64,000 bases of DNA from Acidobacteriota bacterium (lineage in GTDB: Bacteria > Acidobacteriota > UBA6911), in assembly GCA_963664705.1 (NCBI GenBank), contig OY761556.1, positions 6,176,001-6,240,000 on the forward strand. Direction: 5' to 3'. The position numbers and the translations under genes are program-made. Below, one piece after another: positions 1 to 24,231 of this stretch; position 1 is the stretch's first letter, and the number at the start of each line of letters is the position of its first letter. The notes beneath the pieces were generated by a model. That model was not told where the DNA came from. It made no database searches and saw nothing but the letters and a program-made list of their open reading frames with translations.

Positions 1-915
1 AGTGGCGCTGATCCCCTGGATGCCCTGCAGCAGCAAGGGGTAATAGAGTGTTACCCCGACCATGCCAAAGAACGAAAGAAAGCCGGCTCCTGAGGCCGTG
101 ATAAAAGGCCGATTCCTGAGCACCGACGGATCCAGAATGGGTTCCTCCGCTTTTGTTTCCGCGCGCAGGAACAGAATCCAGAAAACCAGTGAGACCAGAA
201 GCAGACTGATGACCGGCGCGGATCCCCATGGATAGGTGGTGCCCGCAAAGGAAAGACCGAAAATCAGAGTAGAAGATGCAATCGCAACGGTTGTGGATCC
301 CTGAACATCAATCTTGCGCGCGGCACCCTGCACCAGCGAAGGCATTCCAAGGGTGATGCTGATGCTCAACAGAAGCAGCGGGACTCCCCACCAGAAAATA
401 TATCGCCAGCTCATGGAGTCCACCAGCCAGCCGCCCAGTGCGGGGCCGAAGACCGCGAATACTCCGGTTGGGATATTCAACAGGCCAACCCAGCGGCCGC
501 GCTCGGCCGGCGAGAACATGTCTCCGACCACGGAATACACCAGCGGAGCCAGTCCTCCCTGGCCAAGACAGAGGATCGTTCGAGCTGCGATCAGAAACAC
601 GTATGTCGGGCTGAGTGCCGATAGAACTGCTCCGACGGCAAAGATGACCAAACATAGCTGCATCATGAGCCGGCGCCCGAAGATGTCGGAGAGCTTTCCG
701 ACCAGAAGCGTCCCAAAAGCTAATCCAAGTCCTGGAATTGATACCGACCAGGAGTACAATGCCATTCCGTCAAGGTCTGCGGCCATGCGTGGGGCTGCGG
801 ATCCGGGCGTCTGGACGTAATAGCTGAAGACGAGTTGGGCAAGAAAAATGCTTGCCAGTGCCAGGAAGACCTGCTTTTTCGTATACACGAGTTGCGGCTG
901 CGCGGCTGGTTTCAC
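1..915 (-). CDS. MFS transporter (DHA2/EmrB-QacA-like), 3' end runs off the window
   Basis: Not in the ORF track because there is no stop in the window. Manual translation from GTG at 915 (RBS AAAGGGGAGA): MKPAAQPQLVYTKKQVFLALASIFLAQ...GKLSDIFGRR, which is MFS motif A, followed by hydrophobic helices. Confidence 0.85.
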   Translation of the reverse strand, partial: MKPAAQPQLVYTKKQVFLALASIFLAQLVFSYYVQTPGSAAPRMAADLDGMALYSWSVSIPGLGLAFGTLLVGKLSDIFGRRLMMQLCLVIFAVGAVLSALSPTYVFLIAARTILCLGQGGLAPLVYSVVGDMFSPAERGRWVGLLNIPTGVFAVFGPALGGWLVDSMSWRYIFWWGVPLLLLSISITLGMPSLVQGAARKIDVQGSTTVAIASSTLIFGLSFAGTTYPWGSAPVISLLLVSLVFWILFLRAETKAEEPILDPSVLRNRPFITASGAGFLSFFGMVGVTLYYPLLLQGIQGISAT

Positions 916-2441: not shown

Positions 2442-2942
2442 GTGGCGGCAACAAAGTTGATAACACTGACGGTAAATGGAATGGTTCATGAACTCGACAT
2501 CGGCACACGCTCAGGGCAGGTCGATCCCTCGCACACCCTGATCTTTACCTTGCGCGAGACGCTCGGATTGACAGGCACCAAGATGTCGTGCGGTGAGGGC
2601 GCTTGTGGAATCTGTACGGTCATTATGGATGGGAAGGCGGTTCCTTCCTGCCGAATTCTCACTGTCGAATGTGATGGAAAGAACATCACAACGGTCGAAG
2701 GGTTGCGGGACTCCAAAACGGGTGAGCTGGATCCGTTGCAGCAGGCTTTCATTGACCATACTGCATTTCAATGCGGCTTTTGTACGCCGGGAATGTTGAT
2801 GACGGCAAAAGCCCTCCTCAACGACAACCCGCATCCCACGGAGGAAGAGGTGAAGGAAGCTTTGTCCGGCAATTTTTGCCGTTGTGTCAGCCATTACCAG
2901 GTGTTGAAGGCCGTCATGTCGGTTGCAGAGAGGGGGCAATAG
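2442..2942 (+). CDS. Xanthine dehydrogenase family 2x[2Fe-2S] small subunit
   Basis: GTKMSCGEGACGICTV...C and QCGFCTPG...NFCRC; RBS AAGGAG before the GTG start. Confidence 0.93.
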   Translation: MAATKLITLTVNGMVHELDIGTRSGQVDPSHTLIFTLRETLGLTGTKMSCGEGACGICTVIMDGKAVPSCRILTVECDGKNITTVEGLRDSKTGELDPLQQAFIDHTAFQCGFCTPGMLMTAKALLNDNPHPTEEEVKEALSGNFCRCVSHYQVLKAVMSVAERGQ

Positions 2943-2943
2943 C

Positions 2944-5214
2944 ATGGGCGAGAACTATCGCTGGATAGGGAAGAAGATGCCCCGTCGTGATGCGGCCGAG
3001 GTTGTGACCGGGACAGCAAAATATCTGGACGATCTGAAGTTTCAGAATTTGCTTTACGGCAAGGTGCTGCGCAGCCCGCACGCGCACGCGAATATCAAAA
3101 GGATAGACAAAAGCAAAGCGCAAGCGCTGCCGGGTGTTGCTGCCGTGGTGACATGGGAAGATATTCCGGACTGGAAAGGTGGAACGCCCCGAATGGTCCG
3201 CGTACTTGACAATAAAGTCCGGTACGTTGGGGATGCGGTGGCCCTGGTTGCGGCGACCACAGAACAGATTGCGGAAGAGGCTTTGAAGCTGATCGACGTG
3301 GAATACGAGGTTCTGTCCGCCGTCTTTGATATCGATTCCGCCCTCAAGCCGGATGCTCCGCTCCTGTATGAGGAGCTTGGAAGCAATATCCTCCCCGGCG
3401 GAACGATCATCTATGGTCCCAACTGCCTGAAGGGAGTAGTCCGTGGCGATGTGGATAAGGGATTTGCAGAGGCGGATGTCATAACCGAAGGTACTTTCGG
3501 ATATGAGAATACGCCCAACGCGGCGCCTCCGGAATGTGTCGGTGCTGTTGCCGTATGGGAACCGCCCAACAACGCCACCATCTGGGGCACCAGCCAGGCG
3601 CCCTATCTCGACAAAGTGACGCTGTTCCACGTATTCAACCGGCAAGTTGAAATCCGGAGCATCGCCAACCATGTCGGCGCCGGGTTCGGCACCAAGATCA
3701 TGTGCTGGCAGGTGCAGGCCTATGCCATTATTCTTGCCCGCGCAACCGGCCGGCCGGTAAAAGTCGTGTTCACCAAAGAGGAACACCTGGCTGCCTTTAC
3801 TTTGCGGATCAGCTCCAGGATCCACGCCAAAGTCGGGATGAAAAATGATGGTGAAGTCACTGCCATTCAGGGAACCTGGTATGTAGATACCGGTTACTAT
3901 TCGTTTACAACACAAGCCCAGGTTGCAGTCGGATCGGGTGAGCTCCAGATTGTGGCGCAATGTCCGAACTGGGATCTGAAGAATACCATTGTGGCCACGA
4001 ACAGAAACGCCTCCGGTGCGACCAGAGGTTTTGGTGGGCTGGAATTGAAGTGCTCGTTTATTCCGTTGCTCTGCCTGGCTATGCAGAAGGCGAAGCTGGA
4101 TCCTTTCGAAGTGCTGAAGAAGAACTTCATCAAACCGGGGAATACCGGGTACTTCTGGCGCGATGGCGAATGGTACGACTACCGCGGCATCGATTTTTCC
4201 AAATCCATGGATGCCGGCGCAGATCTGTTCGGATGGAAAGATAAATGGAAGGACTGGCTGACGCCCAGTTCAGTGGATGGCGTCAAGCGCCGCGGCATCG
4301 GCGTGGGCGTACACGGCAATGCGGATATTGGCGAAGATACCGCCGAAGCCTACATCCAGCTTGGGTATAACAATACGGCCACAATCTTTCTCTGCGTTGC
4401 GGAGCACGGTACCGGCCAGAAATCCAATTACGCGAGGATGGCGGCTGAAGTCCTCCAGATCCCGCCGGAGCGGATCGCCATGTCTCCGGCTGATTCGCTG
4501 GTCACTCCATTTGAATTCGGCGCGGTCGGTTCGCGCGGCACCTATGCGATCGGAAGCGCAGTCATTAACGCAGCTCAGGATGCCAAGAGGCAGTTGCTCG
4601 AGCTGGCGGCGCCAAAACTGGGCGCCGATCCAAAGGATCTCGATACGGTCGATGGCGTTGTTTTTGTCAAAGGACAGCCGAACAAAGGGATCAAGTGGCG
4701 AGCGATGGGAAATGATCGGACCATCCTGGGCTATGGACGGTTTGATCCCGACTTCACGATGTGCAACATGATCATGTGCTTTGTTGAGGTGGAAGTTGAT
4801 ATTGAGACCGGTAAGGTGAGCCTGATCCGTGCAGTCAATGCCACGGACGTCGGTCAGGTTATTGATCCGGTCGGACTCGCCGCCCAGCTCAATTCGTCCT
4901 GGGGCTCCGCCGGAATTGACAGCGGAATTTTCGAAGAAGCCGTGATTGACCGGCGAACCGGGCACATGCTCAACTCCAACCTGATCGACTATAAATGGAG
5001 AACTTTTTCGGAACTGCCCATTGCTGAGTGTGTGGCACTGGAAACCCCATTTCCCACGCATCAATTTCACGCGGTAGGGGTGGGCGAGATTGCTACAGCT
5101 CCCGGGACGACGGCTGTTTTGATGGCGGTGTCGAATGCAATCGGCACCTGGTTGTATCAATACCCCGCGACTCCGGATCGCGTGTTGAAGGCACTCGGGA
5201 AAGGAGTCGCATAA
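2944..5214 (+). CDS. Xanthine dehydrogenase family molybdopterin-binding large subunit
   Basis: LRSPHAHA, GAGFGTK, TRGFG, GSRGT and GVGE (catalytic Glu) motifs; start taken at ATG 2944. Confidence 0.93.
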   Translation: MGENYRWIGKKMPRRDAAEVVTGTAKYLDDLKFQNLLYGKVLRSPHAHANIKRIDKSKAQALPGVAAVVTWEDIPDWKGGTPRMVRVLDNKVRYVGDAVALVAATTEQIAEEALKLIDVEYEVLSAVFDIDSALKPDAPLLYEELGSNILPGGTIIYGPNCLKGVVRGDVDKGFAEADVITEGTFGYENTPNAAPPECVGAVAVWEPPNNATIWGTSQAPYLDKVTLFHVFNRQVEIRSIANHVGAGFGTKIMCWQVQAYAIILARATGRPVKVVFTKEEHLAAFTLRISSRIHAKVGMKNDGEVTAIQGTWYVDTGYYSFTTQAQVAVGSGELQIVAQCPNWDLKNTIVATNRNASGATRGFGGLELKCSFIPLLCLAMQKAKLDPFEVLKKNFIKPGNTGYFWRDGEWYDYRGIDFSKSMDAGADLFGWKDKWKDWLTPSSVDGVKRRGIGVGVHGNADIGEDTAEAYIQLGYNNTATIFLCVAEHGTGQKSNYARMAAEVLQIPPERIAMSPADSLVTPFEFGAVGSRGTYAIGSAVINAAQDAKRQLLELAAPKLGADPKDLDTVDGVVFVKGQPNKGIKWRAMGNDRTILGYGRFDPDFTMCNMIMCFVEVEVDIETGKVSLIRAVNATDVGQVIDPVGLAAQLNSSWGSAGIDSGIFEEAVIDRRTGHMLNSNLIDYKWRTFSELPIAECVALETPFPTHQFHAVGVGEIATAPGTTAVLMAVSNAIGTWLYQYPATPDRVLKALGKGVA

Positions 5215-7562
5215 TGAAAAAGTTCACACACCATAATGCGCGATCGCTGAAAGAAGCCGCGACTCTGCTGTCGAAATACAATGGGAAAGCGAAGGTCAAC
5301 GCCGGCGGGACGGATCTCCTGGGGACGCTTCGAGAGAACAGTGCCGCGGACTATCCGGAAGCCGTCATCAATATCAAGAACGTTCCGAAACTCAATTATG
5401 TCAAAGCCGGCAGCAGAGGCTTGAAAATAGGCGCCCTCACAACTCTTGCAGATTTGCTGAAGTCGCCTGCAATTCGGGCGGATTATCCGCTTCTGGCGGA
5501 AGCAACCCATGCGGTGGCAAGTCCGAATTTGAGAAACATGGCTACGATTGGCGGCAACCTTGCCCAGGACGTACGGTGCTGGTATTACCGCTATCCCCAG
5601 CAGATTGGCGGGCCGATTGTCTGCCTTCGCAAAGGAGGCAAGACCTGCAGCGCCCTGCTGGGAGACAACCGGTACCATTCTATCTTTGGTGCCGCGGCTG
5701 CGAATGAACGACGATGCGCCGGCCACTGCCCGGCCCACATCAACATACCGGGTTACCTGAAGCACGTTCGAAAGGGGAATCTCGGGGAGGCCGCCAGGGT
5801 GTTGATGCGGTACAACCCTATACCTGCGATTACGGGAAGAGTCTGCCCGATCTTTTGCGAACCACAGTGCAATCGCGCCGAGTTCGATGATTCGGTTGCC
5901 ATACACCTGGTGGAGCGTGGCGTTGGAGACTACATCCTTGATCATGTTGTGGAGTGCTTCGTCCCTCCTCAAACAACATCCGGGAAAAAGATCGCCATCA
6001 TCGGTTCCGGGCCGGCCGGAATGACGGCGGCCTTCTATCTGAGAAAGTCCGGTCACGAAGTTACCGTATATGAACGGATGCCGGAAGCCGGTGGTATGCT
6101 TTCCTATAGCATCCCGCCATTCCGTTTGCCGAAGGATGTGGTCCGACGGCAAGTCCAGGCGCTGCAGTCCATGGGGATCCGGTTTGAAGTCGGATCGACA
6201 ATAACGGATCCGCGCGCTATCGATCAGATGCAATCCAGTTTTGATGCGGTGTTGCTGGCCGGCGGGACCTGGAAAAGCCTGAAGCTTGGCATTGCGGGAG
6301 AGGATGCGCCGAACGTTTCCCATGCGCTTGATTACCTCAGCAAAATCAATGCCGGCGAGAAAATCGCCCTGGGCCGCAGGGTTATTGTCGTTGGCGGGGG
6401 CAGCGTTGCGATTGATGTAGCCAGAACCGCTCGCAGGCTGGGATCGGAAGACGTCCTTATCGTTTGCCTGGAGACGAGAGATCTCGCGTCCGGTGATCGG
6501 ATGCCGGCTTTGGATTGGGAAATTGCGGAGGCGGAAGAGGAAGGCATTGTCATTCATCCTTCCGCCGGAGTCCGGGAGTTCCTGTTGCAGGACGGACGGG
6601 CGGTTGGAATCAGAACGAAACGATGTGTTTCTGTGCGCGAACAGGACGGCCGGTTCAATCCCCAATATGATGAATCGGCTGAAGGCGAAAGCTACCAGGC
6701 CGAAAGCATCGTTGTGGCAATTGGGCAAGCCGATGACCAGACGTTGGCATTTGTCCAACAGGCAGCCTCTGGTCAGGGTCGGACATTTTCCTGCGGCGAT
6801 ATGACCTCCGGCCCATCCACGGTTATCCAGGCAGTTGCTTCCGCGAAAACTGCCGTTCAGGACATTGAGACATATTTGAATGGTGGCCGACTGCCTGACG
6901 TGAGCGACGAGGAACCGGAGTTTGCGGAATCCAGTTTCGAAAATATTCCGAGAGCCGTGGTCCATGCAGCGAACGTGGCTGACCGGATCCGGAGTATCGA
7001 TGGCGAAGATGTTCCAGGCCTCAGCCTGGCTGACATCGAAACCGAAGCGAAGCGGTGCGTCAGCTGCGGGTGCCTCGCGGTGGGGCCATCCGATCTGGCC
7101 ATTGCGCTGGTTGCCCTGGATGCAAGCATCGTTACCACGCAGAGAACGCTGGAGGCCAAGGCGTTTTTCGCGGCCAGCGCGACATCTTCGACTGTTCTCC
7201 GACCCGATGAACTGGTCAAGGAAATTCAAATTCCTAAACCGCCAAAGGGAGCGCATCAGAGTTATCGCAAATTTACCCTGCGGAAACCGCTCGATTTTGC
7301 TGTTGTGAGCGTGGCGTCCATCATTTCATCCAAGAACGGAATTTGTTCTGATGCACGCATCACGCTTGGCGCTGTAGCGCCGGCTCCTCTGCGTGCCAGC
7401 GCGGCCGAAACAGCATTGCAGGGAAAGCCTCTCAACGAAGAATCCGCTTCCGAGGCGGCAACGCTTGCTTTGAATGGCGCCATGCCACTGAGTATGAACG
7501 CGTATAAGGCTGAGATTGCCCGCGTGCTGATCCGGCGATCGATTCTGGGCATCCCGGAATAG
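5214..7562 (+). CDS. Mo-hydroxylase FAD subunit (PaoB/HcrB-like) with an inserted GltD/NfnB-like Fe-S flavoprotein module
   Basis: TAATG coupling to the upstream gene; AGGTDL, RNMATIGGNL, CWYYR..C..C, then CAGHCP, GRVCPIFCEPQC, GSGPAG, GGGSVAID, EAKRCVSC, then the FAD subunit resumes with CLAVGPSD...LGAVAPAP. Confidence 0.88.
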   Translation: MKKFTHHNARSLKEAATLLSKYNGKAKVNAGGTDLLGTLRENSAADYPEAVINIKNVPKLNYVKAGSRGLKIGALTTLADLLKSPAIRADYPLLAEATHAVASPNLRNMATIGGNLAQDVRCWYYRYPQQIGGPIVCLRKGGKTCSALLGDNRYHSIFGAAAANERRCAGHCPAHINIPGYLKHVRKGNLGEAARVLMRYNPIPAITGRVCPIFCEPQCNRAEFDDSVAIHLVERGVGDYILDHVVECFVPPQTTSGKKIAIIGSGPAGMTAAFYLRKSGHEVTVYERMPEAGGMLSYSIPPFRLPKDVVRRQVQALQSMGIRFEVGSTITDPRAIDQMQSSFDAVLLAGGTWKSLKLGIAGEDAPNVSHALDYLSKINAGEKIALGRRVIVVGGGSVAIDVARTARRLGSEDVLIVCLETRDLASGDRMPALDWEIAEAEEEGIVIHPSAGVREFLLQDGRAVGIRTKRCVSVREQDGRFNPQYDESAEGESYQAESIVVAIGQADDQTLAFVQQAASGQGRTFSCGDMTSGPSTVIQAVASAKTAVQDIETYLNGGRLPDVSDEEPEFAESSFENIPRAVVHAANVADRIRSIDGEDVPGLSLADIETEAKRCVSCGCLAVGPSDLAIALVALDASIVTTQRTLEAKAFFAASATSSTVLRPDELVKEIQIPKPPKGAHQSYRKFTLRKPLDFAVVSVASIISSKNGICSDARITLGAVAPAPLRASAAETALQGKPLNEESASEAATLALNGAMPLSMNAYKAEIARVLIRRSILGIPE

Positions 7563-7586
7563 CTGCGGTAGGACCTGCGACAGCTT

Positions 7587-7616
7587 GGAGACTGAGAGCC
7601 GGCGCTCTCAGTCTCC
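7587..7616. terminator. Perfect 13-bp hairpin between convergent genes
   Basis: GGAGACTGAGAGC-cggc-GCTCTCAGTCTCC between stops at 7562 and 7627; no clear U-tract, so it may be a REP-like element. Confidence 0.55.
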
Positions 7617-7626
7617 GAGAGTGTTC

Positions 7627-8313
7627 CTATTGAGTCAAATAGGAAAGAACTTCACCCATAATCCCATTGATGTTACGGTAGAAATCCTCGGGCGCAGTGC
7701 GCACCTCCGCTTCCGTCTGAACATATTTGCCGGGAACCGCAACATCGCTCAGACAGTTGTCTAAAATGCTGAGGGCTAGTTCAGGCGTTGTTTCCAGGTG
7801 AAATTGCAGGCCAAGCACATTCCTGCCAATTTGGAATGCCTGATTCTCACAACCCTCGCTCCTGGCCAGCTGCACGGCGCCCGCGGGCAGATCGAAGGTC
7901 TCGCCGTGCCAATGAAAGGCAGTAAAATCCTTCGGAAATTGGAACGCAGTCGCCGGGCCGGGGACTGTCCGTACGGGAAACCAACCGATCTCCCGCTCAC
8001 CATTTCGATACACCTTTGCCCCTAGAGCGCTGGCGATCAGCTGAGCGCCAAGGCAAATCCCAAGGACTGGAATGCCTCGCGCCACGGCATCCCGGACGAA
8101 CTGCTTCTCAGGAACAAGCCAGGGGAAGACTTCTTCATCGTTCACGCTCATCGATCCGCCCATGATGATGATCATTTCAATGGAATCCAGCGAAGGGAGT
8201 ACTGCCGATTCGAAAAAGCGTGTGTGGGAGATCCGGGCTCCGCATGCCTTCAGCCAGGAATCGATGCTGCCAATACTCTCGAACGGGACATGCTGCAAAA
8301 TGTGAACCTTCAT
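7627..8313 (-). CDS. Class I glutamine amidotransferase (stand-alone)
   Basis: LGICLGAQ nucleophile elbow, HWHGETF, QFHLE (Cys-His-Glu triad). Confidence 0.9.
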   Translation of the reverse strand: MKVHILQHVPFESIGSIDSWLKACGARISHTRFFESAVLPSLDSIEMIIIMGGSMSVNDEEVFPWLVPEKQFVRDAVARGIPVLGICLGAQLIASALGAKVYRNGEREIGWFPVRTVPGPATAFQFPKDFTAFHWHGETFDLPAGAVQLARSEGCENQAFQIGRNVLGLQFHLETTPELALSILDNCLSDVAVPGKYVQTEAEVRTAPEDFYRNINGIMGEVLSYLTQ

Positions 8314-8345: not shown

Positions 8346-9302
8346 TTAGGCTGACTTCCTATTGAATAGCAGCACCGCGCTTTCCAGTTCCGGAGGGATG
8401 ACCATTAAGCTCAACTTTCGGTCGATGCCCCACTCAAACCTGGTCTGTTCTTCATAGCTGGTCCAGTTTCCACTGGCAAACCTGAACCGGCTTCCAATGA
8501 CGATATAGGATTCGACGCTCCTTGTATTGAACACATGCCGCTCGAAGCTGTTTCCCGGAGGCGGCCAGGAGCAGATCACGACCTGCGGTTCGTATTTTGC
8601 CAACGCCTGCTTCGCCCCCAGCTTTTCCACGGCATCCGGGTATTCGATGCGATGGCTCCAGCTATAGTCATCGGTGGCCCGTGCGGATATTCCCTGCTTT
8701 GTAAGAAATCCCGTCAGGGTCCCATCGCCTGCGCCTATCTCAAGGCAGGTTCGATTCCCGATGAATCGGCAGAATTCCCATGTCAGTTCCCGGGAATAAA
8801 AACAATAGATGCCCTTGGTTTGCACCAGGGGCATCAAGATCCTCTTTTGAGTGATAAATCGCCACCAGAAGTTGAAGCATTTTAGAGACGCCGGCTTCCG
8901 CGTCAGATGGCGCTCAAAAAGAAGTTTCTGAATGATATATCCATTGATCCGGTTCAGGCGGACCTTTCCCGTCGAGCCGATCGCGGCCGTTTGGTAGCAC
9001 AGGCCGGCGGCCAGAAGGAACATTCTGTTACGGATCAATTGCGGCATTGCCGACTCTATAACTTTGGGATTGTGCCGGCTTTTTTCGACCCGGTTTTTCC
9101 ATGTCTCCTGGGTCAGTCTTTTTTGAGTGCAGGAATCGGTGAATTCAGGGCCGTTGCTGTTCTTGAGAGCGTTTATGAGTTCGGGCCCCACGCATTGCCA
9201 ATCCTGCGGGTATCGATCCATTAGCTCCTGAAGGCTTGCCTTGTGACAGACCCAGATATATTCATCCTTCGGACGCAGTTTTTCGCTCATGAATTCTTGC
9301 AC
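8346..9302 (-). CDS. Hypothetical protein with a C-terminal class I SAM-dependent methyltransferase domain
   Basis: LEIGAGDG motif I and ICSWPP; start may be ATG 9290. Confidence 0.65.
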   Translation of the reverse strand: MQEFMSEKLRPKDEYIWVCHKASLQELMDRYPQDWQCVGPELINALKNSNGPEFTDSCTQKRLTQETWKNRVEKSRHNPKVIESAMPQLIRNRMFLLAAGLCYQTAAIGSTGKVRLNRINGYIIQKLLFERHLTRKPASLKCFNFWWRFITQKRILMPLVQTKGIYCFYSRELTWEFCRFIGNRTCLEIGAGDGTLTGFLTKQGISARATDDYSWSHRIEYPDAVEKLGAKQALAKYEPQVVICSWPPPGNSFERHVFNTRSVESYIVIGSRFRFASGNWTSYEEQTRFEWGIDRKLSLMVIPPELESAVLLFNRKSA

Positions 9303-9463: not shown

Positions 9464-10057
9464 GTGACAGGAAATTATATGCAACCGTTTAAGAGCCCTT
9501 TCGAAATTCAGGATTTTATCAATACGCTGAAATATCGTCCGGATGGCGGAGCGATGTCACCGCTCGTGGTTGAGCGCACCGGCAAGGCAAATTGCTTCGA
9601 TGGGGCGGTATATGCGGCGGCTGCATTGGAAACACTCGGCTTCCCACCGCTTATCGTGGATCTGCTTGCAAAGAAGGACGACGATCACGTGATCGCGGTA
9701 TATCACGCCGGGGGATGGGGAGCTCTGGCTCAGTCCAATACCACGATGCTGCGAGCGCGGGAACCCGTATACCGCAGTCTGCGCGAGCTTGTGATGTCTT
9801 ATTTCGATGGCTATTTCAATGTCCATGGATACAAAAGCTTGCGAGGCTACTCTGCTCCGGTGAATCTGAAACGGTTCGATTCCTTGAAGTGGCGGACAAC
9901 CGAAGACAGTCTGGATGCCGTGGAGAGCTATCTCTTCAAGGTCAGGCATTACCCACTCATCACCCGGCAGATGGAACGAAAACTGGTACCGGCAGAGCCG
10001 CTGCTGATACGTGCCTGTTTCCTCAATGCAAACAAGAAGGGCCTCTATCAGCCCTGA
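9464..10057 (+). CDS. Transglutaminase-like (vasohibin-like) cysteine protease
   Basis: ANCFDGAV, DDDHVIAV and WGALAQSN...YRSLRELVMSY parallel the vasohibin Cys/His/Ser motifs. Confidence 0.7.
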   Translation: MTGNYMQPFKSPFEIQDFINTLKYRPDGGAMSPLVVERTGKANCFDGAVYAAAALETLGFPPLIVDLLAKKDDDHVIAVYHAGGWGALAQSNTTMLRAREPVYRSLRELVMSYFDGYFNVHGYKSLRGYSAPVNLKRFDSLKWRTTEDSLDAVESYLFKVRHYPLITRQMERKLVPAEPLLIRACFLNANKKGLYQP

Positions 10058-15836: not shown

Positions 15837-16601
15837 CTAGAGCAGACGGTCCGGTCCTGTCGGATTTTGCGGGAATGTCTCCGCAAATAGGGAAACTGCC
15901 ATTGGCCTTGCGGATAACCGGCCCGGCCGGTAATCCGCTTTCAATGCAGCAAGGTACGCCAGTTTGTTTATCACCCAGGCGTCATCCTTCTTTACATAAG
16001 AGACTTCGCAGACGCCGCCTTCCCACCCGTAAACAATTCCTTCTCCCTGCAGCCGAGCCATATCCACCAGCGAAGAATGCCCGGTCATTGGGACACCGAC
16101 CTGCATGGAATAAGGGAATTGACCGGTTGCGGTCATGCGGTCTTCCGCCACCTCCACGATATCCAACTGCCGGCCGGGATCCGATTCGAATCCGGGCACG
16201 GATTCGACCTTCTTCCCTGTTCGTCCGGAGGCGAAATGGTCGCAATACAGGCGTCGAATCCCGTCTTTTCCCACATAGAGACCGCCGTTATAAATCACCC
16301 GGGCGTCATCGGTGAACAGGCCGACGACCTCTTCGTACATGCCCTGATCGAGACGGGATTCGAATGACTGGTGCAGCCTGCGGATGGTGTTTGCGTCTTC
16401 GAGGCTTCCAATGCGGCTGGCAAGACGATCCAACTGTCCGCTTCGTCCGGCATCGGCATCTGCCTTGTGGGCTGGAATTCCCGCCACGGCCGATGCAACC
16501 ACCGCCGACATGGCCGCGCCGGTTTTCCAGATGAAGGAACGTCGTCCTGTATCCGGCTTGGTGTGGTTTCCGGCAACCGATTCAGGTTTTAGGATAGACA
16601 T
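15837..16601 (-). CDS. Tat-exported SnoaL-like/NTF2-fold protein
   Basis: GRRSFIWK twin-arginine motif plus hydrophobic stretch; LEDANTIRRL...LFTDDA...WVINKL pattern. Confidence 0.75.
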   Translation of the reverse strand: MSILKPESVAGNHTKPDTGRRSFIWKTGAAMSAVVASAVAGIPAHKADADAGRSGQLDRLASRIGSLEDANTIRRLHQSFESRLDQGMYEEVVGLFTDDARVIYNGGLYVGKDGIRRLYCDHFASGRTGKKVESVPGFESDPGRQLDIVEVAEDRMTATGQFPYSMQVGVPMTGHSSLVDMARLQGEGIVYGWEGGVCEVSYVKKDDAWVINKLAYLAALKADYRPGRLSARPMAVSLFAETFPQNPTGPDRLL

Positions 16602-16602
16602 C

Positions 16603-18411
16603 TTATGCTCCTTTCACTTTCGCATTCGGTCCGAAGAAGCGCTTTATATCGTAGCCTCCGATTTCGCGCGCAATTGCTCCGATAAGATTGAGACCGACGC
16701 CTCTTTCCCCACCCGAGAAGCCAAAGCCTGAAGCACGCTTCGTCTTTACATTTTCAATGATACAGGTTTCGGCGCCGTTGCAGCCCTCTTCCACCAGGTC
16801 GAAAATATATACGCCATCGCGAAGCTTTACATATAGAGCCGGGGCGCACCATTGCATTCCAAGTGTCTGGTTTGCCGTATAGATCGTCCATGAAGACGAA
16901 TGGGGTGTGGTGTAAAGGTGCATAGAAGTCATCTGATCGGAATAGGTTCTTGTGAAGCCGCGGCCAACCAGTTCGTGCGTGAATTCATGGCGTACATACC
17001 TCGGCGCATCGATGCCTTCCAATTCAGCTGCGCCAAAGATGGCTCTGTAAGAAACCTCATTCCCGTAATACTTCGTTCCCATCCTGGAAAGAATGCATGT
17101 GGTCAGCCCGTTGGTCAGGTCCAGGGCGATTCTTCTGCAGGTCCGTGGTTTGCTCCCGGTAACGATGTGGGCGAAGAATACCAGTTTTTCATCCGACTCA
17201 AAGGCGCGGTAGGTCTCCTTTTGCCAGTCCTTGTCGCCGTCCTTCTTCCACTGGAGGTTATACAGGTCGAGGACTTTATAGTTCCAGGCCGGTCCCTCGT
17301 TGTCATAGCGGAGAGTGAATTCCTTGCCGATCAGCAGGTCACTTAACGGCAGCACGTTGCCACCCATTCCGCCGCCCTGTTCCTGTGGGGTATTGGCGTC
17401 GCCGGTGAAAGTCCGGGTACTTTTTTCAGCCGCCTGCTGAACCTCTTCATCGGTCATGTTTTTGAAATCTCTGCCCGGACGATAGACAATTCGCTGCCCC
17501 TTGGGCGGTTTGGCGGCCGGCTGGCTTGGTTGTGTTGCATTGGTCCTGCCGAGATCGACTTTATCGCCGTGCTCATCGAAGGGGGCGAGTGAGGTCAAAT
17601 GGCCCACCACTTTCCCGGTTCCCCGGAACAAGTAATATTCCAGGTCGTCCTTTTCGTTGAAGCCAAAGCGCATGCCCGCCTGGGTTTCCGTAAACAGGTC
17701 GAGGACGTACATGGTCATGATGCCGGAAAGCTCGCATTCCGTTCTCTGGTAGATAAAGAGGTTGTCATTGATCATTACATAGTCTGACGGTGCGCAGTAG
17801 CTGAGATCATCGGCATGACGGGTAAGCTCGACGAAATTCGAGGAGGAGACCGACGGATACAAGTCCAGGGTCTCGATCCCTGTGTCCTGTTTCCAGTACA
17901 TGCCGGAGCCCTCGAGCCGGTTGGTTGTGTGATGCCGCTTTTTCGGCGCTTCTTTTCCCGAGACCTCTACATAGCCGAAATAAATCTGGCGCTGTACTTC
18001 CCGGTCATCGATCATGAATTCTTTTTTTGACATCGTGACTTCTTTCTTGCCGCTGCAAAGCCATATTTCAAAGACCGTGGCAAGATTTGTATTCAGATCG
18101 ACGAAGACGTTATAGCCCTTCCGGGCTTTGGGCAGAAGGTGGGAGAAAAACACCACGTTCTTTAGCGACAGGGCGCCATAGGACGATTCCACTGCGGCGC
18201 CGCCATCTTCGACCAGAGTCAGCTTGTTCCTGCCCTTAAATGAGTAGTTCAAAACCGGGCCATTGTCGGTCACGATCTTGAGCGACTTCCCGTTGAGAGC
18301 ATCCGATAATTCGGATGCACATTTCGGGCCGGCGGCAGTTGCGGCCAGCTTGCGATCGATTTGATCGCTGCTGAGTTTGGTGTACTTAAATCGATGCATC
18401 GGCTCGTTCAT
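16603..18411 (-). CDS. MoaF-family-like protein with internal duplication
   Basis: LNGKSLKIVTDNGP / LIGKEFTLRYDNEGP N-type domains and LEGSGMYW / LVGRGFTRTYSD..H.Y...KLRDGVY C-type domains. Confidence 0.6.
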   Translation of the reverse strand: MNEPMHRFKYTKLSSDQIDRKLAATAAGPKCASELSDALNGKSLKIVTDNGPVLNYSFKGRNKLTLVEDGGAAVESSYGALSLKNVVFFSHLLPKARKGYNVFVDLNTNLATVFEIWLCSGKKEVTMSKKEFMIDDREVQRQIYFGYVEVSGKEAPKKRHHTTNRLEGSGMYWKQDTGIETLDLYPSVSSSNFVELTRHADDLSYCAPSDYVMINDNLFIYQRTECELSGIMTMYVLDLFTETQAGMRFGFNEKDDLEYYLFRGTGKVVGHLTSLAPFDEHGDKVDLGRTNATQPSQPAAKPPKGQRIVYRPGRDFKNMTDEEVQQAAEKSTRTFTGDANTPQEQGGGMGGNVLPLSDLLIGKEFTLRYDNEGPAWNYKVLDLYNLQWKKDGDKDWQKETYRAFESDEKLVFFAHIVTGSKPRTCRRIALDLTNGLTTCILSRMGTKYYGNEVSYRAIFGAAELEGIDAPRYVRHEFTHELVGRGFTRTYSDQMTSMHLYTTPHSSSWTIYTANQTLGMQWCAPALYVKLRDGVYIFDLVEEGCNGAETCIIENVKTKRASGFGFSGGERGVGLNLIGAIAREIGGYDIKRFFGPNAKVKGA

Positions 18412-18649
18412 TTGCTCGTCTCCTAAAGAAATCAGTTTTGTTGCGAAATCATATTCGAACGAAGTCTGATAAGTACCTGGGCTGCCGTTCGGAGTTCCGG
18501 AGGCCCCCCGATCAGCTCAATAATTTAAGTAAAATGAAAATGTGTGGGGATATTACTACGAGAGAACACCGGGAACACGGAAAAAACACGGTGAAATGAA
18601 GGACGTTGCACCGTGCTTTTCCCCGGGAATTTCGCGGGCTCCCAACGCT

Positions 18650-19885
18650 TTAGGAGAACTCGCGCGTGCAGTCCATCAGAGCCTGCACATTTTCGATTCT
18701 GGCTTCGTCCAGCACGGCACCCGCGCTCATGATGTATCCGCCGTCCCTGCCAACGGAATCGAGGAGCTTTTTGCAGTAGTGTCGCACCTGGTCCACAGTT
18801 CCGGTGGATAGGAGGGACATGGGAACATTTCCCATGATGCAGACCTTTCCTCCCAGGATGGCTTTTGCCTGCAGCATATCCACGTTTTCAAACCAGTAGA
18901 TTATCTTGCCTTCGGGCACGTCGGCAATCGTGTCAAGCCTTGAATGGTAGGGCCCTTCCACCAGCAGGACCGGTGTGAGATTCTCCCGGACAAGCGCCAG
19001 CAGCAACTCGCGCAGCGTGGGCCAGTAGAATCGTTTGAACTGCTCCAGGGACATGAAATTATCCGACCCCTTGTGCAGCGGGATCAGCACGCGTGGATTC
19101 CCCGACATTTTGGCTGCCGGAACGGCCGTTTCCAGCATGATGGGAAGGAGCTTTTCGCAGGCGGCCGTCAATTTGTCCGGACGCCGGTACATATCGAGAA
19201 GAATGCCTCGCGTGCCCCGGAAATAATCTCCAAGAGTGTCAAACGGCGCCTGCGTGCCAGAGGCGAAGAACATCGGGAATCCGGCCTGTGCGAGTTTGCC
19301 GACAAAACCCTGAAGCGCAGCCAGTGATTTGGCCGACTCTTCTCCCGCTTTTCGCAGCGCTTCCAGGGCTTCGATCCCTTGTGGGCTGGCCAATGGGATG
19401 AACCCTGAAGTCAGTCCGAAAAAATAGCTCATGATTGTGCGGATAGGGGGGAGTTGGCCCAATATGCCAAGTTTTCCGAGCGTCCTGGGCCAGTATTTGC
19501 GAATCAGATAGTCGGAAGGATCAAATAGGAAAGCATCGTATTCTTCCGCTTTCATGTACTCCCCCTCGACATACTGATACCCGTAATCGTCCGGCAATCC
19601 GTATCCCGACCATTGAAGCTGCTTGTAATCGAGAGTCTCCAGCACTGAACCGAAAGTCAGCGGAGCGGACGCCATGTCCGGTTTGAAATCCAGCGTCGCC
19701 TTCAGATTTGCTTCGTAGCTTTTTTCAAGATCGTACAGTTCATCTTTGCGACTGATGCCGGCGTATCGGCTGGCAAAAGCCCCAAACAGGATAACCGCTG
19801 GAATCTGTGAGGGTTTCTTCAACGCCAGTGCATCCAAAACTCGTTGTTCCCGTTCCTGGTAAAGCTGCAGGGCAGTCTTTGTCAT
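18650..19885 (-). CDS. Uroporphyrinogen decarboxylase/MtaA-CmuA-like TIM-barrel protein
   Basis: PFDTLGDYFRG, FMSLEQFKRFYWP, CIMGNVP, GGYIMS, ENVQA. Confidence 0.85.
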   Translation of the reverse strand: MTKTALQLYQEREQRVLDALALKKPSQIPAVILFGAFASRYAGISRKDELYDLEKSYEANLKATLDFKPDMASAPLTFGSVLETLDYKQLQWSGYGLPDDYGYQYVEGEYMKAEEYDAFLFDPSDYLIRKYWPRTLGKLGILGQLPPIRTIMSYFFGLTSGFIPLASPQGIEALEALRKAGEESAKSLAALQGFVGKLAQAGFPMFFASGTQAPFDTLGDYFRGTRGILLDMYRRPDKLTAACEKLLPIMLETAVPAAKMSGNPRVLIPLHKGSDNFMSLEQFKRFYWPTLRELLLALVRENLTPVLLVEGPYHSRLDTIADVPEGKIIYWFENVDMLQAKAILGGKVCIMGNVPMSLLSTGTVDQVRHYCKKLLDSVGRDGGYIMSAGAVLDEARIENVQALMDCTREFS

Positions 19886-19972
19886 TGGCAGGTCTCCAAT
19901 TGTCTGGGCTGGCTGTTATTGTAACAGAATGAAAAAGCGGGAGTATCGAGTTTCGAAGGGGGAATGGGGCAG

Positions 19973-20004
19973 GTGAGATTCGTGGCATTTGCCACGAATC
20001 TCAC
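19973..20004. repeat. Perfect 15-bp inverted repeat
   Basis: GTGAGATTCGTGGCA-tt-TGCCACGAATCTCAC, 10 nt downstream of the 20015 stop. Confidence 0.8.
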
Positions 20005-20014
20005 GAGAGTATTT

Positions 20015-21304
20015 TTAGAAGCGATAGAAGAGCCCTACGCTTACCGGAATCGTTCTTCGCGATCCATAACCGTAGAATGATTTGAGACCGGAAATCGGCG
20101 GTCCGCTTAACGTCGAGTAGGATTCGAACCCGGGCCCGGTCAGCAGCTGGATGTCCGGAGCTGTCGGAGAGCCGGTTTTCGTGGTTGCCTTTACCACCCA
20201 CGCCTTGTTGGCGGTGTTGGTGTGGGTGGCATCCAGCAGCGTGAGCATGGTGTTCTTGTTGAAATAAGCTCTTGCGTCCACCCGGAGTCCGATGTGTGCA
20301 CTCAGATAAATCTTGACCCCGAATCCGACCATCTCCGTAAAGGTGTGGTTGCTGGACCGGGTGACCTTGATGCTGAATGTATCCGTTTCCTGGGCATTGG
20401 GGCCGCCATAGGAACCCTGCATCGTGGCTCCCACCGTTTTGTCTTCATTGAAAACAAAACCGGCTCCGGCGGTGACATACGGATGAAGTCCAAAGGTTTT
20501 TGGCAGGTTGACGACGAAAGCTCCAGTCGTGAAGGTCTCGTGGCCACCGTCCTGCGATAGGGTGTAGGTCGAGCTGGTTTCGGTGTTGCCCGGTACGTCC
20601 AGCCGCTGCCAGAATTTCTTAAAGGTGGCGTCCGCCGCCTTTATTCCGGTGACCGCTTCGTTCGTCATTCCAATTTTGTTGCCGCGATCCAGCGAGAATT
20701 CCGCACCCAGCCACTTATTCAGGCTGCGACTGATCCTGAATCCATACAGCTTTTCTGATGGCTCGATAATCGGCTTGATCAGTGTGTCCTGCAAGGAGGT
20801 TGTGGTTCCAATCAACTCGGCGCCGTCGCCAACGTACCACGAGGACACGCGATTGCTTTGGTATCCCTGGGCCCCGGATCCTAACAGCGAGTATGCTTCC
20901 GCCGAAGGCAACAGCGTGTACCCGCCAGTCTGGTGCGTACGGGACAGACCTCCGTGGACCTCCACTTCCCATTTGAATCGCGATCCGGCGACCGAAGGGG
21001 CTACTTTTTGAGCCTTCTTGCCTTTGGAAGCGATTTTTGGTGGTCCCTGACGTCTCGCCATTGCCAGGATCACCTTTTCAGGTACCTTCTGCTCCTGCAG
21101 CGCGACAACGCTCTCATTGCTTATTTCGAAATTTGGCGTTGCTGTTTCGATGGCACGAATGATGTCTGCCTCCGACATCCCGGACTGTACCATCTTGACG
21201 ACATCGGCATTTGTCATGGGCTGTCCCTTGCCCTGCGCCATGACAAGAGCGCTGCCAAGAAATAATAAGACTGCCGTAACAGCGACTAAAAGGCGGCGTA
21301 TCAT
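20015..21304 (-). CDS. Putative outer-membrane beta-barrel protein with a small N-terminal helical domain
   Basis: Signal peptide; TNADVVKMVQSGMSEADII domain; amphipathic strands (PYVTAGAG, GLRVDARAY); C-terminal VGLFYRF. Confidence 0.7.
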   Translation of the reverse strand: MIRRLLVAVTAVLLFLGSALVMAQGKGQPMTNADVVKMVQSGMSEADIIRAIETATPNFEISNESVVALQEQKVPEKVILAMARRQGPPKIASKGKKAQKVAPSVAGSRFKWEVEVHGGLSRTHQTGGYTLLPSAEAYSLLGSGAQGYQSNRVSSWYVGDGAELIGTTTSLQDTLIKPIIEPSEKLYGFRISRSLNKWLGAEFSLDRGNKIGMTNEAVTGIKAADATFKKFWQRLDVPGNTETSSTYTLSQDGGHETFTTGAFVVNLPKTFGLHPYVTAGAGFVFNEDKTVGATMQGSYGGPNAQETDTFSIKVTRSSNHTFTEMVGFGVKIYLSAHIGLRVDARAYFNKNTMLTLLDATHTNTANKAWVVKATTKTGSPTAPDIQLLTGPGFESYSTLSGPPISGLKSFYGYGSRRTIPVSVGLFYRF

Positions 21305-21384
21305 TCAATCACCCCCGCGACAATATTCAATCCTGAAGCAAAGCCGAAATATTAGCCGTTTTTTGGACTGGCGCCAATAATTCT

Positions 21385-24231
21385 TTATTTCGTGGAGGCT
21401 TGTGTCTTTCCTGATTCCAGCGGAAGCGCGGTCAGGAGCCCCTGGTTATCGAGCAGTGCGACCGCAGCGAATGTGGCACCCGCCCGCGCACGAATCGTCA
21501 AAGTCCCACTGAATTTGGTCATGGCCAGATCCTGGGAAAGGTATTTGGCAACCTGCTGTTTAGGACCGATAGTGAAGGCTACCGTGTCTCCAATGCCGGC
21601 TCCATCTATGTCCGTCAACGACACCTCGATGTCGATGGTTTCATCTCCCGGGTTTGCTATGGCATAGGCAATCCACTTCCCCTGGTCGCCGTCGTTGTCC
21701 ACCGCAACCGTTGCAGATTCCAGCTCTCTTGATTGGAGAACCCCGGTGACAGTCTGCAGTCTGGAATTGAGCGGATACTCAAAGGTCACTGACCCGGAAA
21801 GAGAATTGTCCGAGGTTTCCAGCTCACCCCATCCGATCTGAATCGGATTTTCCGATGCAACTTCCGCAGCGGTCAGAAATAGTCTGCTTTGCGCGGGAAC
21901 TGTAACCTGGAAGGCGCTTCCCGAGGTGACAACCTGGGTAATTCCAGCTGCATCGCTGGCAGTGGCGCGAATCCGGAGAGGGTTTCCCTGGGAATCGGTC
22001 AGGCGCAACGTACCGCTTGCGGTTTTCGTGCCCGTGTTGCTGAGCGTGAATAGCGTGGAGTAGCCGCTGCCTACCGCTACCTGGGGAAAGAGGTTGGCCG
22101 TAGCGTCAATCGCGATCTTGCGGATTCTATTGTTGTCATAGTCCGCAACGAACAGGTTTCCGGAGTTGTCTCCCGCGATCCCCATGGGGTAGTTGAGCTG
22201 GGCCAGGGTGGCCTTTCCACCGTCGCCGCTGAATCCGGCGGTAGCAATGCCGGCAAAGGTGCTGATCACTCCCGAGGAGGATACTTTTCGGATGCGGCTG
22301 TTCTGGTGATCGACAATATACAGATTGCCTGCGGCATCCACCGTGACTCCAGTCGGAACGTTCAATTCCGCGGAGGTCGCCGGTCCGCCATCACCGCTGA
22401 ATGCTGCGCTCCCTATTCCTGCCACTGTACTGATAACGCCGGCCGGAGTCACTTTGCGTACACAATTGTTCCCCGAATCCGCGATATAGATGTTGCCCGC
22501 TCCATCCGCCGCTAATCCGGCAGGGAATTGCAGCTGCGCGGTGGCAGCCGGCCCGCCATCACCGCTGTATCCCGCGATTCCGGCGCCGGCAAAGGTGCTG
22601 ATGACGCCATCGGTCGTCATCTTGCGAACTCGATGATTTGAGGTGTCGGAGATAAACAGGTTCCCGGCACCATCCACCGCAACTCCCCACGGGGAGTTCA
22701 GCTGTGCGGCCGTGGCAGCGCTGCCGTCACCGCTGTAGCCCTGCGTTCCATTCCCGGCAACGGTGCTGATGACCCCGGCGGTCGTAACTTTTCGAATGCG
22801 CTGATTTACGGAATCTGCAATGAAGAGATTTCCCGATGCATCCACCGCGACGCCAACAGGGTTGGATAGCTTTGCCGATGTGGCCGCACTGCCATCACCG
22901 CTGAATCCATTATTCCCATCGCCGGCCACCGTGCTGATTATCCCGGCGGTTGTTACTTTGCGAATGCGTGAATTGGCTGAATCCGCGATAAAAAGGTTGC
23001 CTGCCTTGTCTACGGCAACTGCAGTCGGCAGATAAAATTGGGCGGAGGTGGCCAGTCCACCGTCGCCGCCAAATCCCTGGGCTCCCATTCCGGCAACCGT
23101 AGAGATGTTGCCATCCGTTTTTACCTGGCGAACGCGCCGGTTAACGTAGTCTGCGATCAAGATATTGCCGGATGAGTCGACGCTGATGCCTGTCGCGAAC
23201 GAAATCTGGGCGGAGGTGGCCTTCCCGCCGTCGCCGCCAAATCCCGATATGCCCGTTCCTGCCACGGTGCTTATGGACCCGCCCACGGTCATTTTGCGTA
23301 TGCGGTAGTTGTAAGCATCTGCAATATAGATGTTGCCGGAAGAATCCAACGCAATGCCTATCGGGTAACCAAACTTGGCGTTGAGCGCCGACCCGCCATC
23401 GCCGTTGAAACCGATCTCTCCGTTCCCGGCAATCGTGCTGATGTCCCCATTGGTTTTGATTTCACGTATCCGCTGATTGGCCGTGTCGGCAATGTAGATC
23501 ACACCTGCGCTATCAATGGCCACCGCCATTGGCTGATTCAGCGTTGCGTTGACGGCATCGTTTTCGCCGGTCGTGTTGTTCTCGTCGTCCTCGCTAAAGC
23601 CCACGCCGCCGGTCCCGGCTACCGTGGTGATGGTCCCATCGGTTAATTTGCGGATTCGATTGTTGCAGGAATCTGCAATATACAGATTGTTCACGGAATT
23701 GAGCGCCAGTCCGACTGGGCGGCACAGTTGAGCTTCAGTAGCAATCGCATCATCTCCGCCGTATCCACGGTCCCCATTACCGGCTATGGTGCTGATGATC
23801 CCGCCAGGACTGACCTTGCGGATTCGATTGTTGTCGGAATCCGAAATATATAGATTCCCTGTCGAATCCAGGGCCAGGCCCGTAGGGTGGAAAAGCTGAG
23901 CCGAAGTTGCCGGACCGCCGTCCCCGCTGAAACCAGGAGTATTGTTGCCCGCCACGCGAGTGATTTTCCCGTCCACCGTAACCCGGTAGACATTGTTTTG
24001 CCCGCTGATCGCAACGTAGAAACCACCCGTTCCATCCGGAGCGAGAGACGATGGACCGTCCAGCGGCTGCGCCGTGGCGAGAGCACCATTCACCGGTAAC
24101 CCCGGCCCGGCATAGGTCGTAATGATTCCGGACTGGGCAAAGCCGGTCATGCTCACAATGGCAAGAAGTAATATGGCTAAAGCGATTCGAGTTGATGACC
24201 TCACGATAATCCTCCTGAGCTCCTTCAGCAT
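21385..24231 (-). CDS. Secreted NHL-repeat beta-propeller protein (12 repeats) with a C-terminal beta-rich domain
   Basis: Twelve ~56-aa units GFSGDGGxATxAxLxxPxGVAVDxxGNLxIADxxNxRIRKV; signal peptide; C-terminal region starts FPQVAVGSGYST. Confidence 0.9.
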   Translation of the reverse strand: MLKELRRIIVRSSTRIALAILLLAIVSMTGFAQSGIITTYAGPGLPVNGALATAQPLDGPSSLAPDGTGGFYVAISGQNNVYRVTVDGKITRVAGNNTPGFSGDGGPATSAQLFHPTGLALDSTGNLYISDSDNNRIRKVSPGGIISTIAGNGDRGYGGDDAIATEAQLCRPVGLALNSVNNLYIADSCNNRIRKLTDGTITTVAGTGGVGFSEDDENNTTGENDAVNATLNQPMAVAIDSAGVIYIADTANQRIREIKTNGDISTIAGNGEIGFNGDGGSALNAKFGYPIGIALDSSGNIYIADAYNYRIRKMTVGGSISTVAGTGISGFGGDGGKATSAQISFATGISVDSSGNILIADYVNRRVRQVKTDGNISTVAGMGAQGFGGDGGLATSAQFYLPTAVAVDKAGNLFIADSANSRIRKVTTAGIISTVAGDGNNGFSGDGSAATSAKLSNPVGVAVDASGNLFIADSVNQRIRKVTTAGVISTVAGNGTQGYSGDGSAATAAQLNSPWGVAVDGAGNLFISDTSNHRVRKMTTDGVISTFAGAGIAGYSGDGGPAATAQLQFPAGLAADGAGNIYIADSGNNCVRKVTPAGVISTVAGIGSAAFSGDGGPATSAELNVPTGVTVDAAGNLYIVDHQNSRIRKVSSSGVISTFAGIATAGFSGDGGKATLAQLNYPMGIAGDNSGNLFVADYDNNRIRKIAIDATANLFPQVAVGSGYSTLFTLSNTGTKTASGTLRLTDSQGNPLRIRATASDAAGITQVVTSGSAFQVTVPAQSRLFLTAAEVASENPIQIGWGELETSDNSLSGSVTFEYPLNSRLQTVTGVLQSRELESATVAVDNDGDQGKWIAYAIANPGDETIDIEVSLTDIDGAGIGDTVAFTIGPKQQVAKYLSQDLAMTKFSGTLTIRARAGATFAAVALLDNQGLLTALPLESGKTQASTK

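Follow-up and report, generated by a model that had tools for sequence, protein, structure and literature searches.

A UxdC-type flavoprotein with a permuted GltD-like cassette: a predicted built-in NAD(H) port in an acidobacterial molybdenum enzyme

What does a complete GltD-like flavo-iron-sulfur enzyme do in the middle of a molybdenum hydroxylase flavoprotein? The question is raised by an operon near the start of a 64,000-nucleotide stretch of an Acidobacteriota bacterium (contig OY761556.1, positions 6,176,001 to 6,240,000, forward strand; "the window" is this whole stretch), in which the flavin adenine dinucleotide (FAD) subunit, P0001, is interrupted in its [4Fe-4S] loop by such an enzyme. 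An initial annotation had noticed the insert from the DNA letters alone. It had proposed a two-flavin molybdenum (Mo) enzyme wired to NAD(P)H, possibly bifurcating electrons, and had known of no characterised example. Our analysis upholds the wiring, narrows the nucleotide and speaks against bifurcation. As judged from its genes, the operon is a three-subunit Mo enzyme of the xanthine dehydrogenase (XDH) family and of the UxdFOC type.

The three genes run in the order [2Fe-2S] subunit, Mo subunit, flavoprotein, and the ATG of the beta gene overlaps the alpha stop codon:

2442..2942, plus strand: gamma subunit, 166 residues, two [2Fe-2S] clusters, UxdF/HcrC-like (Pfam Fer2 and Fer2_2)
2944..5214, plus strand: alpha subunit, 756 residues, molybdopterin-binding (Pfam Ald_Xan_dh_C, MoCoBD_1 and MoCoBD_2)
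5214..7562, plus strand: beta subunit P0001, a fused two-flavin protein of 782 residues, 40% identical to UxdC

All three products score above the Pfam cut-offs and their open reading frames (ORFs) are adjacent or overlapping, as expected for the three-subunit xanthine oxidase (XO) family; on the gamma subunit, the XdhC/HcrC-type NCBIfam models score under cut-off. The Mo site of these enzymes relies on a glutamine, the arginine of an RGFG motif and a catalytic glutamate. The alpha subunit retains all of them (Q218, R361 and E715), aligned with the residues of HcrA, which is also its top match in the PDB (1rm6_A, E value 7.7e-72). With UxdO the alpha subunit shares 45% identity and 65% positives. 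The uxdFOC genes alone allow C. sporogenes to remove the 10-hydroxyl group of urolithin, as published in 2025, and the same paper (PMC12658268) describes in UxdC an additional 4Fe-4S and FAD/NAD(P) domain and predicts two FADs. We recognised uxdFOC in one of our loci (L024) by four published primers, by the lengths of its products (171, 758 and 810 residues) and by their masses, which agree within one Met. Since UxdC is homologous to the beta subunit and has identical junctions, the statement that no characterised example exists was wrong: UxdFOC has a published in vivo function, and by alignment the beta subunit is a member of the UxdC-type family.

The beta gene is built as follows:

5214..5690, plus strand: host N-terminal part with a PCMH-type FAD site (AGGTD, TIGGN) and ligands C122, C137 and C145 (Pfam, alignment)
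5691..7070, plus strand: inserted, circularly permuted GltD/StnC-type cassette, approximately residues 160-619 (alignment, fold match)
5712..5939, plus strand: Fe-S domain of the insert, with C168, C172, C211, C215, C219 and E234 (Fer4_20, alignment to 4ylf_B, conservation)
6003..6020, plus strand: FAD Rossmann motif GSGPAG of the insert
6279..6728, plus strand: NAD(P)-binding subdomain, residues 356-505, apparently swappable
6393-6410, plus strand: GGGSVA motif in the NAD(P)-binding subdomain
6465-6473, plus strand: CLE replacing YRR, residues 418-420
7044..7067, plus strand: permuted EAKRCVSC with C615 and C618, which would complete the distal cluster
7071..7562, plus strand: host C-terminal part from C620, the fourth host [4Fe-4S] ligand, with the CO_deh_flav_C domain

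The distance from RYH to xxxSD is 470 residues in the beta subunit versus 13-16 residues in the five unfused homologues checked. The insert is thus about 455 residues long and lies between ligands 3 and 4 of the host cluster, which confirms its initial placement in the PaoB/HcrB [4Fe-4S] loop at about 5691-7070. Pfam finds FAD_binding_5 in two stretches, split as predicted around Fer4_20 (residues 165-242) and Pyr_redox_2 (259-515), and then CO_deh_flav_C (684-778). Each of the motifs first noted is present: CWYYR with C122, C137, C145, NRYHSIFG, CAGHCP (C168/C172), GRVCPIFCEPQC (C211/C215/C219), GSGPAG, GGGSVAID, EAKRCVSC (C615/C618) and C620-LAVGPSD. The cysteine motif is indeed permuted to the end of the insert, but this permutation did not originate in the beta subunit. 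The EAxRCxxCxC tail aligns in StnC (8oh5), in 9bov and in NfnA of T. sibiricus (9n5u) and is seen in many other hosts, so the permuted cassette predates its insertion here; the tail is native to the StnC/NfnA-type cassette, and we rejected a permutation unique to the beta subunit. The G+C content at third codon positions, 0.59-0.65 inside the insert versus 0.58-0.63 outside, gives no compositional sign of a recently foreign insert and lends a recent foreign origin no support.

C122, C137, C620, C168, C172, C211, C215, C219, C615 and C618 are invariant in all 145 aligned members, and C145, E234 and R304 are each kept in 144; the four-Cys loop of the PaoB/HcrB type (C122, C137, C145, C620) is therefore conserved in 145, 145, 144 and 145 members, respectively. 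We aligned the insert with T. maritima NfnB (4ylf_B), the cluster ligands of which are listed in PMC7596348. C172, C211, C215 and E234 correspond to the FAD-proximal cluster and C168 and C219 to the distal cluster, for which the two remaining ligands would be C615 and C618 of the EAKRCVSC tail. We infer three [4Fe-4S] clusters, a host cluster (C122/C137/C145/C620), a distal cluster (C168/C219/C615/C618) and a proximal cluster (C172/C211/C215/E234), together with two FADs.

The AlphaFold model of the beta subunit has a predicted local distance difference test (pLDDT) score of 92 and a predicted template-modelling (pTM) score of 0.87. We searched it with Foldseek and then applied a second structural comparison. 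In the model the two host parts come together as an entire PaoB/HcrB fold, which superimposes on 5y6q_B with a root-mean-square deviation (rmsd) of 1.8 (Z 39.7, 317 of 330 residues aligned), on 5g5g_B with Z 37.5 and on 1rm6_B with an rmsd of 2.1 (Z 36.6, 308 of 323 residues). The insert is matched best by StnC/NfnA-type modules (Z 42-45, versus 35-36.5 for NfnB); against 8oh5_C, model residues 161-619 give Z 43.5 and an rmsd of 3.1 over 446 aligned residues. Pfam, model, fold matches and conserved motifs together support the initial idea of a Mo enzyme that has two flavins and its own NAD(P)H module.

4-Hydroxybenzoyl-CoA (coenzyme A) reductase takes its electrons from reduced ferredoxin, and in such enzymes the binding of beta to gamma subunit is that of a textbook pair. 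The use of ferredoxin by this reductase is also alluded to in PMC11760930. In the present enzyme, NADH would reduce the insert FAD, from which electrons would pass through the proximal and distal [4Fe-4S] clusters to the host [4Fe-4S] cluster and host FAD and on through the two [2Fe-2S] clusters to Mo. C618 and C620 are two residues apart and would belong to separate clusters, and the CxxCxC junction would hold the distal cluster beside the host cluster, so that the exit cluster of the cassette would be fixed where a ferredoxin would otherwise dock. On the combined evidence of sequence and model, the insert is probably a built-in, non-bifurcating NAD(H) port of a UxdFOC-type Mo enzyme, predicted to replace the ferredoxin of 4-hydroxybenzoyl-CoA reductase. 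The authors of the Uxd study propose the same shuttle from distal to proximal FAD (PMC12658268), and in StnC the same cassette feeds a linear cluster chain, its FAD being reported as non-bifurcating (PMC10482914). The purified XO-family dehydroxylase Ucdh works with NADH alone (bioRxiv 10.1101/2025.01.17.632430), and bifurcation is thus unnecessary for the dehydroxylation chemistry.

The fused design is conserved among relatives, as a survey of the kind suggested in the initial annotation shows. Our first homologue search scored 7998 candidates; the best 120, which include the query, contain 119 homologues of 749-794 residues that are 60-75% identical to the beta subunit and have all four Pfam domains. 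Clustering at 50% gave representatives, of which the best 150 include 31 that match all three parts; in 27, each part is covered over more than 70% of its length. Members include Acidobacteriota, Syntrophobacterales, Syntrophorhabdales, Acetobacterium, Dehalobacter, Clostridia and Acidimicrobiales. A fused match occurs in nine of 18 other genomes of the same genus, in one of them truncated by the end of the contig and in another split over two frames; three of these nine have a second copy of 44% identity, and two of the 18 have an insert-less orthologue. A strict junction pattern finds the fusion in 2 of 301 genomes of the phylum, which is an undercount, since it missed a genome (G021) with a fused gene. 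BLAST of the source genome returns 24 alpha-subunit and 10 beta-subunit matches, the latter comprising one fused and nine unfused proteins.

Some oddities were seen in passing. Many of the 24 XDH-family alpha matches of the source genome are without adjoining beta or gamma genes, and four near-identical genes encode beta subunits of 316 residues (C1:67011, 3089409, 4312852 and 5998593). In genome G017 (locus L010) the fused gene is split into two frames near residue 430, and in G014 a stray copy of the C-terminal host domain, 77% identical, lies just downstream of the intact gene (L022:11410-11757). P0144, a single sequence of 1730 residues that could be a read-through artefact, combines Mo subunit and fused beta subunit in one chain.

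The nucleotide can be narrowed further than the original NAD(P)H. Among enzymes of the GltD-like DsrL type, those with YRR use NADP(H) and those without it prefer or need NAD(H) (PMC7596348). The beta subunit lacks this NADP(H) motif of the NfnAB type and has CLE at residues 418-420 instead, with E420 in all 120 of the best 120 sequences. Because CLE replaces YRR, the cofactor of the predicted port would be NAD(H) rather than NADP(H), with Glu420 as the NAD-specific residue.

Both types of motif occur in the family: among 42 fused rows, 12 have YRR, 29 have xxE and one has neither. The two types even stand side by side on one contig:

L013:831-3182 and L013:6077-8449: tandem Mo-enzyme operons of a Syntrophobacterales contig, one fused beta subunit YRR-type and the other CLE-type

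Compared with the YRR paralogue, our beta subunit is 65% identical in the host N-terminal part, 60% in the Fe-S domain, 58% in the FAD domain and 64% in the host C-terminal part. Residues 356-505 show 35% identity to the YRR paralogue versus 58% to the adjoining CLE paralogue. We calculated quick trees of the separate parts from one representative set of 35 rows, with 12 near-duplicates and seven further fused rows left out, and compared them by the approximately unbiased (AU) test. A ten-member clade, which was named from the host tree, has support 94 there and 99 in the Fe-S/FAD tree, and is rejected on the NAD-domain tree with motif columns removed (p-AU 9e-7). Conversely, a YRR group is rejected for the host (p-AU 3e-45) and for Fe-S/FAD (0.03), and is not rejected for the NAD domain (0.47). 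The cofactor motif needs two changes on the NAD-domain tree versus eight to nine on the others. The simplest reading, and one we consider fairly likely, is that the NAD(P) subdomain has been swapped between NAD- and NADP-type paralogues; domain-wide convergence of this subdomain would be a less simple explanation. A swap of the whole cassette is unsupported (p-AU 0.083), the signal lying in residues 356-505. Literature searches, with subscription journals mostly outside their coverage, found no paper on such a swap.

Several points weigh against an NAD(H) port that does not bifurcate. Both E234, the Glu ligand of the NfnB type, and R304, the Arg beside the FAD, are retained in the insert; StnC has a Lys at the ligand position. 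Additionally, the function of uxdFOC was assigned in vivo; a bifurcation partner could be encoded elsewhere in the genome; and CLE is absent among the DsrL-1 motifs given in PMC7596348. We weighed other explanations.

According to one of them, the insert is an optional accessory. Two relatives bear on this directly:

L016:6644-7717 and L017:6538-7539: insert-less orthologues of the same genus, with in-frame deletions of the insert

These are the two of the 18 same-genus genomes in which an intact-looking operon has lost the insert in frame. Both genes keep the C620 equivalent but lose C615 and C618, which supports the proposed split of host and distal ligands. They are nested inside the fused clade of the host tree (support 100/99) and L016 retains a decayed insert tail, for which reasons we rejected them as ancestral empty sites; by these sequences the insert has been lost at least twice. 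Fused and unfused hosts are also interleaved on the host tree, and the source genome holds the nine unfused beta-subunit matches. Against a dispensable insert, hardly any change is seen in its FAD and NAD motifs or in any of the ligands across members down to 34% identity, and the NAD(P) subdomain groups according to cofactor motif, suggesting that the choice of cofactor is under selection. We regard a mere accessory as unlikely. A single origin of the fusion is not established: the host tree needs eight changes, of which starred branches force at least three, and four other rows fall into the module clade, whose FastTree support is only 88. P0162 (801 residues) carries its cassette at a shifted junction in the host-cluster loop. 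It has a separate host cysteine and a Lys in place of E234, and it belongs to the main group in neither tree. This single sequence suggests an independent insertion.

The initial annotation had raised bifurcation as a possibility. In this reading the insert or host FAD bifurcates or confurcates, and the electron pair of NAD(P)H is split between Mo and a second carrier such as ferredoxin, which would supply low-potential electrons to a difficult reduction. There are two flavins, and the near-invariance of E234 and R304 fits this idea; Lys, as in StnC, is found in most of the non-Xdh cassettes displayed in the tree. The genome also encodes a probable NfnAB-like fusion elsewhere (C1:6065412-6067790, scanned outside its N-terminal part). 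However, the Glu ligand and FAD Arg of the NfnAB type are necessary and not sufficient: the Arg also occurs in StnC, which does not bifurcate, and DsrL has the Glu. In NfnB, the low-potential exit cluster is the counterpart of the cluster that would be tied to the host cluster in the beta subunit. We found no NfnS-, HydB/NuoF- or Etf-type family, and hence no co-encoded NfnA/NfnS partner as in NfnAB, among 77 neighbouring ORFs within flanks of a few kb (10 from the window and 67, mostly other than known Mo-enzyme subunits, from 12 related loci). A foreign host needs no more than the three uxd genes for Uxd activity (PMC12658268), and NADH alone drives Ucdh. With the nearest solved relatives of the insert being of the StnC/NfnA type, bifurcation appears quite improbable.

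If bifurcation and subdomain swap were both true, UxdC-type proteins would be the first electron-bifurcating members of the XO family, with the choice of nucleotide pool made by a swappable NAD/NADP subdomain through which anaerobes plug many Mo sites into either pool. The swap half of this joint reading is much better supported than the bifurcation half, and as a whole it is quite improbable.

A cofactor change would leave the linear wiring as it is, with NADP(H) or both nucleotides as donor. The module is named NADPH-dependent by automatic annotation, YRR occurs in the 12 fused rows, and a conserved T/S-R-D after CLE could provide an Arg for the 2'-phosphate (R422 in 104 of the 120). Given the absence of YRR from the beta subunit, the invariance of E420 and the preference or need of YRR-less DsrL enzymes for NAD(H) (PMC7596348), we think this very unlikely.

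The chance that the fusion is a misassembly or dead chimera is negligible: its architecture is unusual and one relative has the gene in two frames, but a 50-kb short-read Logan contig covers window positions 4800-8000 and both junctions with no differences (runs X1 and X3; one sample, possibly the source DNA), a 312-base contig from a separate study (X5) spans junction 1 with none, and the 119 close and 27 distant full-length homologues, the match to functional UxdC and the conserved ligands argue likewise.

As for the reaction that the NAD(H) port might serve, we lean slightly towards the reductive removal of a hydroxyl group from an aromatic or heteroaromatic compound, as the nearest solved and the nearest characterised alpha subunits, HcrA and UxdO, are both dehydroxylases; an NAD+-linked oxidative hydroxylation is a strong contender that we place a little lower. 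Speaking against dehydroxylation, UxdO has a Gly where the alpha subunit has Q218. The proposed reading as a whole is weakened by the mere 45% identity of UxdO and the alpha subunit and by an E. bolteae homologue, less than 44% identical to UxdO, that is inactive on urolithin (PMC12658268). Nor do the neighbouring genes (RarD, deaminase, MFS (major facilitator superfamily), IclR, one CoA ligase, TRAP) give a consistent substrate clue. Urolithin itself is an unlikely substrate because of the inactive E. bolteae homologue; active urolithin dehydroxylases show more than 96% similarity in UxdO (PMC12658268), a level that our alpha subunit, at 45% identity, does not reach. The alpha partners of fused beta subunits can be as little as 30-33% identical to that of this operon, so the NAD(H) port would serve several active sites. 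In a second group of fused beta subunits, the neighbouring Mo subunits have HESCWK or HLICIR in place of RGFG, an unusual active site, and a UroD-like gene alongside:

L018:4223-6634, L018:1087-3546, L019:7263-9674, L020:4149-6560 and L016:7757-10168: RGFG-less Mo subunits

The surroundings of the operon in the window contain the following genes:

1-915, minus strand, running off the window: MFS transporter of 537 residues, divergent from rarD; the genome encodes eight close paralogues, and a homologue of 47% identity lies near the operon of L017
976-2307, directly upstream of the operon: RarD-type EamA transporter, syntenic in G014, and a zinc nucleoside/cytosine-deaminase-like gene without match in the fetched loci
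8346-9302, minus strand: ORF of 318 residues with no family match
9464-10057, plus strand: ORF of 197 residues with a weak Vasohibin match (E value 4e-4, under cut-off)
15837-24231, minus strand: SnoaL-like, MoaF-domain, UroD-like, unknown and NHL-repeat genes; UroD-like genes similar to this one recur beside other Mo-enzyme operons of the genus

The architecture as such is already in print (UxdC, 2025). New are the apparent subdomain swap, the insert losses in two relatives with the fourth host cysteine kept, the probable independent insertion of P0162 and the varied alpha partners. If the proposed wiring is true, the enzyme would be a self-contained counterpart, driven by NAD(P)H, of the ferredoxin-type Mo reductases, capable of anaerobic aromatic dehydroxylation or hydroxylation without low-potential carriers and easier to use as a biocatalyst. 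The nesting of an exchangeable Rossmann subdomain in a GltD cassette in a Mo flavoprotein would clearly exemplify how redox enzymes evolve by modules. The family provides natural controls in the NAD- and NADP-type paralogues of L013, the insert-less L016 and L017 and the apparent independent insertion of P0162.

To place the enzyme among known systems, we compared it with Mo enzymes and with carriers of the cassette. GltD fusions are listed for proteins of the dimethyl sulfoxide reductase family, and none for the XO family, in the available text of PMC6147048; beyond the uxd paper, literature searches with the coverage given above found the fusion described nowhere. We rejected the idea that YgfK does the work of the insert in trans, since YgfK reduces yanthine itself (PMC12507026). 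PaoABC of E. coli (5G5G) and the Methylobacillus aldehyde oxidase (5Y6Q), the top structural matches of the host domain, have a [4Fe-4S] flavoprotein without insert, and PaoC is distant from the alpha subunit (model scores 209 of 1180 bits). HcrCAB of Thauera aromatica (1RM6) contains the top solved match of the alpha subunit. HcrB superimposes on the host part of the beta subunit and shares its [4Fe-4S] loop but lacks the insert, and the TIGR03193/4/5 equivalog models score below their cut-offs (158 against 258 bits, 381 against 995 for alpha and 126 against 405 for beta).

On the side of the cassette, NfnB/NfnL of NfnAB (4YLF, 5JCA) and GltD share the fold, two [4Fe-4S] clusters, the Glu ligand and the FAD-side Arg. 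They differ in being unpermuted (alignments end at residue 557-561) and in having YRR for NADPH, and NfnB needs NfnA to bifurcate, a gene of which kind was not found near the fused genes. StnC of Sporomusa ovata (8OH5) and the large subunits of NfnABC (9N5U, 9BOV) carry the same permuted cassette, its first CxxC moved to a C-terminal EAxRCxxC, in a host Fe-S protein. This host is NuoG/FdhF-like and bifurcation takes place in a HydBC-like partner, whereas the 77 ORFs scanned gave our beta subunit no HydB/NuoF neighbour. StnC binds NADPH and has Lys170 where the beta subunit has Glu234.

UxdFOC of Enterocloster shares most with our operon. The gene order 2Fe-2S, Mo, flavin is common to both, and UxdC (810 residues) is 40% identical over its full length, with its insert at the same junctions and with the CxxCxC tail and CLE. 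No ucd operon and no XdhC/MogA gene was found among the window ORFs scanned. The two systems differ in their host group, as the closest named relatives of our beta subunit are Acidobacteriota, and in the pocket of the Mo subunit, where UxdO has Gly instead of Q218 and deviates in loops 244-257 and 316-336.

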